DNA from: Leptospiraceae bacterium
Lineage (GTDB): Bacteria; Spirochaetota; Leptospiria; Leptospirales; Leptonemataceae
Direction of reading: 5' to 3'
Assembly (NCBI GenBank): GCA_040217195.1
Contig: JAVJNR010000003.1
Coordinates: 32,001-96,000 of the forward strand
Length of the DNA: 64,000 nucleotides
A program made the position numbers and the translations under genes. Shown here piece after piece: positions 18,229 through 22,532 of the stretch (within the stretch, counting starts at the first letter, position 1; the number at the start of each line of letters is the position of its first letter). The notes beneath the pieces are model-generated. The model did no database searches. It was not told where the DNA came from and saw only the letters and a program-made list of their open reading frames with translations.

Positions 18229-18552
18229 TTAACGGCGCTTTTTAGTGGCCTTTTTCTTAGAAGTCTTCTTCTTCGCTGCCTTTTTCTTAGAAGTTTTCTT
18301 CTTTTTGGCTGCCTTCTTTTTTCCAGCTTTCTTCTTGGAAGCGGCTTTCTTTTTCTTTTTTACCGCGTTCTTAACAGTGGCTTTCTTACGAGCCATGCCA
18401 GGACGGGTCCACTTCTTTCGATAAGCCTGGTCAGAAATCTGCTTTGGCTTTAAGCCGTAAGCGGGAGCAATATCGCCTGGCTCTTTGCCTTGCGCGTACT
18501 GCTTCTCGATTTCTCTTTGTTCTTTTTCGCTCAGGTCTGACCAATGTCTCAT
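18229..18552 (-). CDS. Small basic protein: HTH-like N-terminal domain + histone H1-like Lys/Ala-rich tail
   Basis: 107-aa ORF with RBS GAGAGG, its own promoter and a terminator. The tail consists of KKKAA/KKKTS repeats. Confidence 0.82.
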   Translation of the reverse strand: MRHWSDLSEKEQREIEKQYAQGKEPGDIAPAYGLKPKQISDQAYRKKWTRPGMARKKATVKNAVKKKKKAASKKKAGKKKAAKKKKTSKKKAAKKKTSKKKATKKRR

Positions 18553-18613: not shown

Positions 18614-19044
18614 TCAAATTTGCAATTCATCGCCTTTCATTGGAAAAAAAATTGCAAAAACACCCCTTTTTGCACCTGCGAAGGCGATATCGCATGCGAA
18701 ATTCGCCTTCGCGCGCTTGAATCAGCCTTAAAAACGTTAAAAACGGTACATCATGGATGTTTTTAAGTGATAAAGGCTACCATATCCCTCAAACGTTGCT
18801 TAAACTTCGACGTTTGATGCTAATCATCTCGACCATCGGTTAAACAATGCCAGTGTAACGAATAATCGAGTATGAACCCGGATTGAACCTTCAATGCCAT
18901 TACCTTCGCCAACAGAAGAGCAAAGCTACTGTGGCAAAGAAGACACAGTCATACAATGCCTCAATGAATGAATTTGTTGCTCTGGAAGCTGATAAATGCA
19001 AAGAAAAGCTGGATTTTACAGGCAATTTTGTCCATCTGGGACCA

Positions 19045-20556
19045 ATGAAAGCCATTCGACGCATTCTTATAGCTAATCGAGGGGAAATTGCGGTTAGAAT
19101 CATACAAACTATCCAGAAAATGGGTCTTACATCTATCATAGTCTATTCGGATGCAGACCGTAATAGTCCTGCCGTAAAAATGGCCGATGAATCAATTTAT
19201 CTGGGGGCATCCGAGCCTTCGCAATCCTATCTGAATATTCCGGCACTGATTGAGGCGTGTAAACGTACCGGTGCAGATGCAGTTCATCCTGGTTATGGAT
19301 TCCTTTCGGAAAATGAATCCTTTGCCCGAGCACTCGAAGACAATGGGATCGCATTTATTGGACCTTCGCCAGAAACCATCGCTGCTATGGGCAATAAAGT
19401 GGAAGCGCGAAGGATCATGGAGGCTCACGGTGTTCCTGTAGTGCCCGGAAACGATGATTTGCCGGAGGATGATCAGGCTATTATCGCCATCGCCAATAAT
19501 ATTGGCTATCCGTTGCTGGTAAAAGCTCGCTCCGGCGGTGGAGGCCGGGGTATGCGCCTTATTACATCCGAAAAAGAGCTTCTTGAGGGCATCGATTCGG
19601 CCAAAAGAGAGGCTGCATCGGCTTTTGCAGACGATGGAGTGTTTCTGGAAAAGTTTGTGGAAACCCCCAGGCACATAGAGATTCAGATTTTTGGGGATGG
19701 CCAGGGCAATTGCATCCATTTATTCGAGCGAGAATGCTCTATACAGCGTCGACATCAGAAAATCATCGAAGAAAGCCCATCCCCGGCCCTGACAGAGGCG
19801 GATCGGGCCTCGATTACCGAGGCTGCACTAAAAGCAGCCCGAGCTGTGAACTACAGAGGGGCCGGAACAGTGGAGTTTGTGTACTCCGATACGACCAGAA
19901 GCTTCTATTTTCTGGAAATGAACACCCGATTGCAGGTAGAGCATCCTGTAACGGAAACGGTTACGGGCAGAGACCTGGTTCGAGATCAGATTCTGGTGGC
20001 CATGGACCCGTCTCACCTGCCAGATCAGTCTGAAATCCAGATGAATGGACATGCCATCGAGGTTCGGCTGTATGCAGAGGACCCGTCCGCCGGTTTCATA
20101 CCTTCAGCCGGAAAAGTGCACCGGTTCAGGACTCCATTGGATGTTCGAGTGGATTCTGGCGTGGAATCGGGAAGCACTGTATCGCTTTTCTACGATCCCA
20201 TGATTGCAAAGATCATTGCTCGAGGGGCACGACGGCAGGAGGCAATTGTGAATCTAAGAAATGCCCTGGATGATGTGGTACTCTTTGGGCCTAAAAGCAA
20301 CCTGGAATACCTGAAAGCTATTCTGGATAATCCACAATTCCGAAGCGGCGATTTCTCCACCGCCTTTGTTGAGAAGGAAATGGCAAACTGGATGCCATCA
20401 GTAGATGGGAATACCCTTGACAGGGCCCGGGCAGCACTTGCCGTTCTCTACTACGAAGGTGCCAGCAAAAAAAGTATCTCTACTATAGAAGAAATAGCTT
20501 CCCGGGGAGCCTGGAAAGCAGATGCATTCCAGCTCTGGATGGCCGGCCCAACGTAA
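19045..20556 (+). CDS. Biotin carboxylase subunit (acetyl/propionyl/methylcrotonyl-CoA carboxylase alpha type) without a biotinyl domain
   Basis: Motifs ILIANRGEIA, HPGYGFLSEN, GGGGRGMR, RECSIQRRHQK, EMNTRLQVEHPVTE and YDPMIAK. No AMKM motif. Confidence 0.93.
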   Translation: MKAIRRILIANRGEIAVRIIQTIQKMGLTSIIVYSDADRNSPAVKMADESIYLGASEPSQSYLNIPALIEACKRTGADAVHPGYGFLSENESFARALEDNGIAFIGPSPETIAAMGNKVEARRIMEAHGVPVVPGNDDLPEDDQAIIAIANNIGYPLLVKARSGGGGRGMRLITSEKELLEGIDSAKREAASAFADDGVFLEKFVETPRHIEIQIFGDGQGNCIHLFERECSIQRRHQKIIEESPSPALTEADRASITEAALKAARAVNYRGAGTVEFVYSDTTRSFYFLEMNTRLQVEHPVTETVTGRDLVRDQILVAMDPSHLPDQSEIQMNGHAIEVRLYAEDPSAGFIPSAGKVHRFRTPLDVRVDSGVESGSTVSLFYDPMIAKIIARGARRQEAIVNLRNALDDVVLFGPKSNLEYLKAILDNPQFRSGDFSTAFVEKEMANWMPSVDGNTLDRARAALAVLYYEGASKKSISTIEEIASRGAWKADAFQLWMAGPT

Positions 20557-20574
20557 ATGCAAGGATCCCAGCGT

Positions 20575-20940
20575 ACCGGGGCCTGCTGGACCAGGCAAAA
20601 CTCAAGGAGTTTTGCGCGATCTGGATGATCGCAAGCCACCTGGTGGCGCAACACTGGTTACGCCAGGCGGATTGCAGGAAGCAATGCGCCGAGCGGACCG
20701 GGGCCCGCTGGACCAGGCAAAACTCAAGGGGTTTTGCGCGATCTGGATGATCGCAAGCCACGTAGTGGCGCAACACTGGCGACGCCAGGCGGGTTGCAGG
20801 AAGCAATGCGCCGAGCGGACCGGGGCCTGCTGGACCGGGCAAAACTCAAGGAGTTTTGCGCGATCAGGATGATCGCAAGCCACGTAGTGGCGCAACATTG
20901 ATGACGCCAGGCGGATTACAGGAAGCAATGCGCCGAGCGT
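20575..20940. repeat. Tandem array of three 122-bp multi-hairpin units
   Basis: Units start at 20575, 20697 and 20819. Units 1 and 2 differ at 7 of 122 positions. The period is not a multiple of 3. Each unit contains several perfect inverted repeats. Confidence 0.97.
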
Positions 20941-20963
20941 AACTATAAGAAAGGAATAGATTT

Positions 20964-22532
20964 ATGCAGAATAAAGAACGCTGGGGATCCAGAATTGGAG
21001 TCATACTTGCCGTAATGGGTAGCGCCATCGGCCTGGGAAACTTTCTGCGATTTCCTGGTCTGGCCGCCAAGTACGAAGGGGGAGCATTCATGATCCCCTA
21101 CTTCATCGCCCTGTTATTGCTGGGATTACCCATCGCCTGGTTGGAATGGTCCATGGGTCGATATGGCGGTGACCGAGGCTATCATTCAAGTCCTGGTATT
21201 TTTCGTGCCCTCTGGAAATGGAAAGGCTCTCCTTATTTTGGTTTTCTGGGCCTGCTTGTGCCGGTGGGTATTTACATGTATTACGTTTTTATCGAAGCGC
21301 TATGCCTGTACTATGCGTATCTCTATCTGGTAGGCGGTCTTCCTGAATTCAATGCGTTGAGTGGAGGGACTCCTTTTAAGGATTTGTTCGCCGCAGCCAC
21401 CGGATCGGGCGCGGATGGAAGTCTTTTTACAGGTACGCATCCCATACTGCTCTTTGTTCTGATTTGCTTCGCTCTGAATACCGGTATCATCTATAGAGGA
21501 CTTTCCAAAGGTATTGAGATTGTAACCCGAGTAGCCATACCGGTGCTCTTTCTATGTGCGATTCTGGTTCTGATTCGAGTGCTTTCCCTGGGCACTCCTG
21601 ATCCAGTCAACTTTCCGGACCGAAATGTGCTGGAAGGCCTGGGGTATATGTGGAACCCGGAGCCCAGGAACAAGACCTTCATGGAATCACTGCTCAATGC
21701 AGAAATGTGGATGGAAGCTGCGGGTCAGGTATTCTTCTCCCTTTCCGTTGGATTCGGTGTAATAATTACATATTCTAGCTATGTACGTCGCAACGAAGAT
21801 GTGGTATTATCGGGCACCACTTCTGCCTCTGGAAATATCTTCGCCGAGGTAGCACTGGGTGGACTGATTACCATTCCAGCAGCCTTTATCTTCCTTGGGC
21901 CTGCCGGAATCAGTGATTCCACTTTCGCTCTGGGCTTTGAGACTCTGCCACAGGTATTCCAGGCAATGCCCGTGGGTAACTTCTTTGGTTTTCTCTGGTT
22001 CTTTCTATTATTTCTGGCAGCCATTACCAGTTCGCTTTCCATGTTGCAGCCAGCCATTGCATTCTTCGAAGAGGGTCTGGGACTGGAAAGAAAGACATCG
22101 GTAACCTTTCTTGGATTAATCACTTTGATAGGTACGGGATTCGTGGCCTTCTTCAGTATGGGCAATAAAGGCCTGGGCTATATGGATTTCTGGGTGGGCA
22201 CCTTTGCCATCTATCTTCTGGCTATGTTGCAGGTAGTGGTTGGAGGTTGGTTTTTTGGTGCAGAAAAAGCCATTGATGAAGCCAACCGTGGATCCTACAT
22301 GAAGTTACCTAAATGGATGGGGTTCATCTGGAAATACGTTTCCCCGGCTTTTCTGATTGGAATTTTTGTTCTGTGGATACAGCAGGAGTTGCCCAAAAAG
22401 ATGGAGGCAATGGGCAAGGATTTAACAATGCAGCTCACCGTAACCTTCCTGATCGTGCTTTCCATTTTCTTCTTAATTTTGATTTCAGCAGCGGTGCGGC
22501 GATGGCGCCGGCAGGAAAAGGAGGATCTATGA
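20964..22532 (+). CDS. Sodium-dependent transporter, NSS (SNF/LeuT-like) family
   Basis: Motifs ERWGSR, GSAIGLGNFLRFP, GGAFMIPY, AAGQVFFSLS and AAITSS. RBS AAAGGA. Confidence 0.95.
   Translation: MQNKERWGSRIGVILAVMGSAIGLGNFLRFPGLAAKYEGGAFMIPYFIALLLLGLPIAWLEWSMGRYGGDRGYHSSPGIFRALWKWKGSPYFGFLGLLVPVGIYMYYVFIEALCLYYAYLYLVGGLPEFNALSGGTPFKDLFAAATGSGADGSLFTGTHPILLFVLICFALNTGIIYRGLSKGIEIVTRVAIPVLFLCAILVLIRVLSLGTPDPVNFPDRNVLEGLGYMWNPEPRNKTFMESLLNAEMWMEAAGQVFFSLSVGFGVIITYSSYVRRNEDVVLSGTTSASGNIFAEVALGGLITIPAAFIFLGPAGISDSTFALGFETLPQVFQAMPVGNFFGFLWFFLLFLAAITSSLSMLQPAIAFFEEGLGLERKTSVTFLGLITLIGTGFVAFFSMGNKGLGYMDFWVGTFAIYLLAMLQVVVGGWFFGAEKAIDEANRGSYMKLPKWMGFIWKYVSPAFLIGIFVLWIQQELPKKMEAMGKDLTMQLTVTFLIVLSIFFLILISAAVRRWRRQEKEDL

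Follow-up and report, generated by a model that had tools for sequence, protein, structure and literature searches.

We have found that the three tandem units that separate the genes for biotin carboxylase and an NSS transporter are one site of a dispersed, genus-restricted family of hairpin-chain repeats, apparently undescribed so far. Family units stand at 12 loci of the source genome (G000), and each of the 7 genus genomes has some; thus the possibility of a single-locus structure, raised when the array was first annotated, can be discarded. The stems of these hairpins are rewritten between loci yet kept paired, while the loop letters, an internal loop and an end motif of 10 nt remain constant. 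For the family as a whole we consider a mobile repeat of folded DNA more plausible than an RNA, on an evidence base of genomes only, from one uncultured genus.

The window, that is the whole stretch of 64,000 nucleotides analysed, carries the array as head-to-tail 122-bp units that begin directly after the biotin carboxylase stop codon and occupy the gap up to the transporter ORF (Table 1). TRF returned a period of 122, 3.0 copies, 93% match and 0 indels at 20570-20939, in agreement, together with the ORF calls, with the initial annotation, which had described three such units between two co-directional genes, free of spacers and with a period that is not a multiple of three. The whole unit is repeated and no spacers intervene, which is not the layout of a CRISPR. 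A coding role for the overlapping minus-strand ORFs of 108-119 aa was rejected because of the period and because units differ between species. Elsewhere in the window, a short minus-strand ORF at 18229-18552 with a lysine/alanine-rich histone-like tail is the source of 15/33-bp tandem signals. The terminal motif GAGCGTAACT plus ATA forms a sharp 3' end of the array, just 5' of the ribosome-binding site, and the motif is found at both ends of the array, a layout also seen at loci L002, L172 and L247. These ends are direct copies; the terminal inverted repeats that characterize MITEs and long inverted arms are absent from the array, and a simple scan revealed no consensus promoter or terminator around it. 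Head-to-tail unit joints recur on contigs from three other marine studies, one of them with a 14-nt insertion, so that the tandem arrangement is not the assembly artefact that had been considered possible. The copy number of three is the assembly value, since no contig spans the whole array and read depth there does not translate into a number of copies.

Table 1. Features of the repeat array and of its neighbouring genes in the window
Feature	Position	Strand	Basis
Biotin carboxylase gene	18883..20556	+	ORF; Pfam Biotin_carb_N, CPSase_L_D2, Biotin_carb_C
5' remnant: short stub and first terminal-motif copy	20557..20578	+	sequence
Unit 1 (TRF phase)	20570..20691	+	TRF; model R1, 72 bits
Hairpin H1 of unit 1, 9 bp	20595..20615	+	RNA and DNA folding
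Hairpin H2 of unit 1, 6 bp; family loop A(G/C)GAN	20616..20632	+	alignment A1
Hairpin H3 of unit 1, 5 bp; family loop cGNAg	20635..20647	+	alignments
Hairpin H4 of unit 1: basal ACG/CG(T/G), 3x3 internal loop, 10-bp stem, AGGAA loop	20660..20696	+	alignments
Unit 2	20692..20813	+	TRF; model R1, 76 bits
Unit 3	20814..20935	+	TRF; model R1, 87 bits
Terminal motif GAGCGTAACT, then ATA	20935..20947	+	sequence
NSS (SNF-family) transporter gene, downstream	20964..22532	+	ORF; Pfam PF00209

Among the three window units there are 13 variable columns, 8 of them in stems as the initial annotation had drawn these, and all 8 are transitions. Its count of five changes giving G.T pairs on the plus strand was exact, the other three giving A.C. 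The argument built on the G.U pairs is weak; this split is not informative (p 0.73), and the family is G.U-poor. Transitions were concentrated in stems (Fisher p 0.007, with stems defined after the fact), and compensatory changes within the window array numbered 0. Compared with shuffled sequences, each unit is far more stably folded, whichever strand is taken, with z from -2.7 to -5.5 as RNA and from -3.4 to -5.1 as DNA. The six hairpins originally named are all in the sequence; those of GCCTG and CTGGC are local to the window array and, judging by alignment A1, not family features, and the multibranch closing pairs then proposed (TTGCGC/GCGCAA and GGCGCA/TGCGCC) found no support, with no pairing excess over shuffles in 46 units. 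The window array is a slightly degenerate, worn member of the family, in which CCA replaces the internal-loop GGA (CCA/GAG in unit 1 versus the family GGA/GAG) and two of the three H2 loops read TGGAT. In unit 1 both the H2 loop TGGAT and the H3 loop CTG are off the family consensus; the H3 loop is GTA in units 2 and 3, and the H2 loop AGGAT of unit 3 is that of the consensus. The place of H1 in the unit is a family feature and its sequence is locus-specific.

BLAST and nhmmer searches with the unit detected weaker relatives in other parts of G000 as well as in 5 of 40 relatives, and a pattern of the last hairpin had many matches in G000 and in five of six congeners, its single matches in six other genomes being at about the rate of a reversed control. 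From 124 profile matches 57 distinct units were parsed, and 46 units, including the three of the window, constitute alignment A1, on which model R1 was built. This model recovered 29, 24, 16, 36, 11, 2 and 5 units in the seven genus genomes, which are related to one another and 58-94% complete, with 29-32 units in G000 (32 in a laxer run), one unit in genome G024 and none in the 79 sister-family genomes. In a phylum scan of 150 genomes, three including G000 had matches, those of the other two being single and weak. Where named records contain the family, their titles are those of Leptonemataceae or Spirochaetaceae MAGs, and the sequencing runs richest in the array are marine metagenomes, with no RNA run listed; all 20 metagenome matches are duplicates or near-duplicates of known genus loci. 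Viral pattern matches (9 and 12) were judged by context to be due to chance, and two further viral scans as well as two plasmid searches gave no match. Wider sequence matches, in Acidobacteria and others, proved to be different repeats; at L055, L060, L062, L075 and other Acidobacteriaceae loci we observed a different multicopy hairpin element, on which R1 is silent and which has only an H3-like hairpin and GGGAG in common with our family. Rfam had no match over the window at gathering score, and relaxed E-values brought only chance matches for the array and eight other loci. The literature searched, mostly open-access, contained no description of the present family, although TwoAYGGAY variant figures in preprint supplements may bear on its novelty.

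The units share a fixed order, namely terminal motif, H1, H2, two bases, H3, a linker of 10-15 nt, H4 and ACCT or AACT, mostly followed by CTA or ATA. H1 has a variable stem, H2 has 6 bp and an A(G/C)GAN loop closed by C-G, H3 has 5 bp and a cGNAg triloop, and H4 combines an ACG/CGT base, a GGA/GAG internal loop, a 10-bp stem and an A(G/C)GAN loop, the consensus of the terminal motif being GAGCGTA(C/A)CT-CTA. The 3' end is sharp, at ACCT or AACT and then CTA or ATA, and the 5' end is ragged; accessory modules are found nested within H2 and H4 loops, and also on their own. The initial annotation had none of the dispersed family, its terminal motif, its GNA triloops or its A(G/C)GAN loops; the conserved single-stranded structure that it proposed is now strongly supported, the support coming from the homologues rather than from the three copies. 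The paired cells of A1 amount to 93.1%, dropping to 24-43% in slid controls, and two-sided changes affect 18 of 24 pairs, in 275 cells versus 87 in shuffles; the choice of A1 rows by a pattern biases its loop and pair counts in favour of the model. In alignment A2, which comprises the best 150 of 165 matches (127 distinct units) and, being fitted to the model, also has counts that lean towards it, 94.2% are paired and 23 of 24 pairs have two-sided changes, with 780 compensatory cells versus 239 in shuffles, counts that refer to cells and not to events, kin sharing changes. RNAalifold, unaided, gave the same three hairpins as separate structures, and no closing pairs were found around H2-H3. 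Among the 127 distinct A2 units from the best 150 of 165 matches, H3 loops were cGNAg in 105, cHNAg in 16 and other in 6, with no GNRA or UUCG tetraloop, and the GGA/GAG internal loop was present in 86; cGNAg is also the H1 loop of 25 out of 52 distinct hairpins. In G000 as a whole, C-A(G/C)GAN-G sits on a perfect stem of at least 6 pairs in 43 of 5321 occurrences (8.1 per 1000), compared with 1.5-2.8 per 1000 for six control loops. This almost free turnover of stems with fixed loops, internal loop and 10-nt end motif defines what a partner must read, and strong covariation in such repeats need not mean RNA.

GCGNAGC mini-hairpins are described as extraordinarily stable when made of DNA, the RNA counterpart tested, a tetraloop, melting far lower (PMC13037366, in part). 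Moreover, G.T pairs make up 22 of 1331 paired cells in H2 and H3 (1.7%) and 44 of 1064 in H4 (4.1%), the figure for 36 tRNAs of G000 being 61 of 791 (7.7%). Taken together with the antisense and intragenic copies, the empty orthologous sites and the GGA-less loops on equal stems considered below, the GNA triloops and the few G.T pairs lead us to favour DNA. Of the two readings originally offered, a REP/MITE-like DNA element or a multimeric RNA, a dispersed DNA element fits better, and the link to a HUH/RAYT enzyme that accompanied it was not found (PF01797 in 0 of 7 genus genomes).

In co-directional gene pairs the array is sense in eight cases and antisense in two (p 0.11, locus L170 being scored as sense), other arrays sit between convergent or divergent genes, and both orientations as well as intragenic copies occur; a replication-strand bias was not significant (9:4, p 0.27). 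The names of flanking genes across loci, including acyl-CoA dehydrogenase and excepting biotin carboxylase, NSS, PT-HINT and Rpn, are presumptive, as judged from the translations. Most loci are common to several species in the same orientation, and five genomes have units at the biotin carboxylase-NSS site, with different stems in each; shared loci are old and kept, not freshly hopped. Four sites filled in G004 lack a unit in G000 (L172, L170, L161/L263 and L163), and these empty sites could be losses. At L172 there is CTA on both sides versus a single CTAA in G000, and the other empty sites are too diverged for a target-site duplication to be read. At L156, L159, L217, L249, L260, L161 and L171 the facing gene ends in a stop codon immediately next to the terminal motif. 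A facing gene has its stop codon overlapping or closely following the motif, and a following gene its ribosome-binding site or start. At L269/L163 of G004 an Rpn gene is interrupted by the unit, which stands directly 5' of an internal ribosome-binding site and start, presumably those of a small Rpn protein, and four of the six genus copies of Rpn (PF04754) genes have family modules within or close to their 3' end (L269/L163, L268, L270 and L271). A lone inverted unit was observed at L044:1606-1693 (G003), within an otherwise head-to-tail array.

Our searches of genus genomes, which are 58-94% complete, brought up no transposase of the RAYT, IS91, IS110 or IS4/5 kinds. PF01797 (tnpA-REP/RAYT) and PF01609 had no match in seven genomes each, and PF01548 and PF04986 none in five, the last being no proof because the control was silent as well. 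Across 42 family genomes PF01797 produced one weak match, with no unit near. The reverse transcriptase domain PF00078 appeared in one of five genomes and not in G000, and no unit lies near it; L174:1054-2367 (G005) encodes a lone reverse transcriptase, of 437 aa, away from any family unit. None of the four tyrosine recombinases (PF00589) of G000 adjoins a unit. Rpn/PF04754 was rejected as a mobiliser, being present in 12 genomes outside the genus and absent from four of the seven inside it.

The family resembles REP/BIME (REPIN) elements in its dispersed, mainly intergenic hairpins, which are lineage-specific, clustered, in part intragenic and often at gene ends, and also in its tandem copies with flanking DNA, its conserved stem irregularity and the CT beside the hairpin. 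A REP trait is the tetranucleotide GTAG or GTGG 0-2 nt 5' of the hairpin foot (PMC6006769, in part). Neither this tag nor CGTC stands at the hairpin foot of our units; their sense strand has GGAG/TGAG inside H4, and GTAG appears on the other strand only in the minority of units with CTAC 3', 4 nt from the stem. The basic unit of REP/BIME is an inverted doublet, whereas our arrays are head-to-tail, with an inverted unit at L044 only; our units contain four ordered hairpins in 100-120 nt and number tens, not hundreds; and the cognate tnpA-REP gene is flanked by the repeat, whereas PF01797 is absent from the seven, incomplete, genus genomes. Since tag, inverted doublet and RAYT all fail, the family is not REP. 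TwoAYGGAY (RF01731) is likewise a dispersed multi-hairpin element with two CsrA-type loops, for which variable copy number, nearby repeats, suspected mobility and a spread whose mechanism is unresolved are reported (bioRxiv 10.64898/2026.09.22.753630 and PMC2864571, both in part). It differs in having AYGGAY loops instead of A(G/C)GAN pentaloops, a common basal stem instead of separate hairpins and divergent doublets instead of tandem units, and a GNA hairpin separates the two loops in our family. RF01731 had no match to the family even at relaxed E-values, and the hexaloop ANGGAN occurs in 1 of 127 H2 and 13 of 127 H4 loops among the best 150 of 165 matches, so that the units do not carry two AYGGAY loops. 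With the sRNAs CsrB, CsrC and RsmZ our units share, in part, repeated AGGAN/ANGGAN loops on short stems with C-G closure; those sRNAs are, in contrast, stand-alone genes with promoter and terminator, whereas the family occupies many loci and about a third of its simple loops lack GGA. Modular tandem build, concerted change at orthologous loci and in-frame gene insertion are features of streptococcal BOX, staphylococcal STAR and rickettsial RPE elements, which our family may resemble in these respects, their modules and host range being different. Ribozymes, K-turns and group II introns were rejected, the core motifs being absent, and Rfam agrees. The UG27 arrays, finally, also consist of structure-conserved, sequence-diverse units with internal-loop motifs (bioRxiv 10.64898/2026.09.22.753630, in part), but have an RT and two accessory genes adjacent; no such genes lie near our array, PF00078 had no match in G000, and the family is chromosomal and dispersed, with shorter units and metabolic-gene flanks.

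At the 3' end of the presumed acyl-CoA dehydrogenase gene (L157 in G004, L164 in G005 and L258 in G002), units alternate with extra copies of its last 18 codons, always joined at the identical point. One displaced tail is nearly identical to the functional tail. Two others differ from it by 12 nt and 0 aa (G005) and by 8 nt and 0 aa (G004), and two displaced end copies have amino-acid changes (15 nt and 3 aa in G005; 9 nt and 2 aa in G002). The purely synonymous divergence of the 12-nt and 8-nt tails implies that they would be formerly working foreign copies, once functional in other lineages and probably displaced by recombination. Arrays with such synonymous displaced tails would record exchange between lineages.

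We tentatively propose, as a reading that is quite possible, that this genus-restricted, one-directional modular repeat is non-autonomous mobile DNA operating as a folded single strand, REP/BIME-like in its working without being REP. By analogy with TnpA-REP, a strand-specific trans-acting enzyme would read H4 and the loop features and would join DNA at the CT just 3' of H4; such joining might place units beside CTA, which reads as a TAG stop on the opposite strand or forms C-TAA 5' of a ribosome-binding site. TnpA-REP cuts at CT beside the hairpin (PMC8266576, in part), and flanking DNA is carried within tandem REP clusters (PMC3733652, in part). Once seeded, arrays may gain, lose and exchange units through out-of-register recombination, in which DNA of other lineages could also take part. 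Template switching can keep palindrome stems perfect, and could re-perfect those of the units. The mobilising enzyme may have been lost from the genus or may only visit it. It seems rather unlikely that the units form a folded-DNA cassette whose enzyme lies outside the Y1, Y2, IS110 and RT classes, and which would dock at stops and 3' ends, stack, swap foreign tails and, when transcribed, become a mobile CsrA decoy; were this true, it would offer a clean covarying model for how TwoAYGGAY-like elements spread and for any Csr link.

The main rival to a folded-DNA repeat is that the units act as RNA, as a TwoAYGGAY- or CsrB-like multivalent CsrA decoy or leader in intercistronic transcripts that tunes the next gene or titrates CsrA, which is possible, if somewhat unlikely. 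CsrA-type targets follow A(N)GGAX, with irreplaceable core bases (PMC4005645, in part), and leptospiral CsrA requires GGA in vitro (PMC8668096, in part). G000 has csrA, beside fliW, and 141 of the 254 H2 and H4 loops of the 127 distinct units from the best 150 of 165 matches fit A(N)GGAX on a C-G closure (66 AGGAN and 1 ANGGAN in H2; 61 and 13 in H4) and would be predicted CsrA sites. The sense lean of 8:2, the many arrays that end just 5' of a ribosome-binding site and the retention of sites across species also speak for an RNA role. Against it, 59 loops of the same set from the best 150 of 165 matches are ACGAN (35 in H2 and 24 in H4), without the GGA core, on stems that are equally intact (H2 stem perfection of 0.976 with ACGAN versus 0.974 with AGGAN); 54 more are other or inserted (25 and 29). 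CsrA-type loops are thus about two thirds of the simple loops, about a third being without GGA, and the high-affinity hexaloops are a minority. The GNA triloops and scarce G.U pairs indicate DNA, antisense and intragenic copies occur, and in the window two of the three H2 loops are TGGAT. AGGAN and ACGAN loops on equal stems constitute a built-in control that separates CsrA binding from a DNA-level role. Both readings are compatible, as a repeat spread as DNA can hold CsrA sites that would be incidental or co-opted.

The absence of any transposase from our searches, the near-perfect Watson-Crick stems with hardly any wobble, strain-level variation inside the window array and the loss of the internal-loop GGA from the window copy would all suit a passive relic, an old palindrome kept by slippage, unequal crossing-over, gene conversion and template switching with neither dedicated enzyme nor function. 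We consider this quite unlikely, since loop letters, GGA/GAG (in 86 of 127 units from the best 150 of 165 matches) and terminal motif stay fixed while stems turn over, and new sites are occupied with the identical sharp end. Very unlikely, too, is that units are end scars of integrative elements that entered gene 3' ends, replaced the tail and later lost their cargo: most arrays show neither cargo nor tail duplication, no integrase adjoins them in G000, and Rpn, found in 12 genomes outside the genus, is missing from four of seven inside, even though the synonymous displaced tails, the pair of units that encloses PT-HINT and IS3-type ORFs as well as a contig gap at the G000 locus of acyl-CoA dehydrogenase, the sister modules behind tRNA and tmRNA 3' ends and the modules in or near the 3' ends of four of six Rpn genes point that way. 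That the array is RNA-templated and serves a reverse transcriptase, in the manner of UG27 ncRNA arrays, is extremely improbable; such a reading would accommodate the sharp 3' and ragged 5' ends, and the structure-conserved, sequence-diverse units with short internal-loop motifs resemble the UG27 description (bioRxiv 10.64898/2026.09.22.753630, in part), but PF00078 occurs in one of five genomes with no unit near, and the arrays lie between housekeeping genes, not beside a prophage RT.

Several further repeats and modules were observed in the course of this analysis. Two PT-HINT ORFs of G000, at C1:3190-3420 and C1:43660-44151 (both minus strand), contain an in-frame accessory module of about 15-20 extra residues, and each has a second module, reversed, upstream. 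From C4:615811 to the contig end and across a contig gap into C1:1-7120, two units of G000 flank an IS3-type transposase together with PT-HINT and small ORFs, where relatives have the array alone. Sister modular repeats with ANGGAN hexaloops stand directly behind tRNA 3' ends at C7:1000-1720, C2:499856-500260 and C10:532916-533200 of G000, and in G024 one unit with a perfect H4 is found directly behind tmRNA (L257:5070-5200). A second, unrelated family of tandem palindromic repeats, with GTTCG...CGAAC motifs, is present in G000, a genome without RAYT, at C4:241589-241837, C4:312027-312229, C4:552857-553099, C5:523941-524371, C5:605380-605899 and C6:25675-25867, as well as upstream of Rpn genes.
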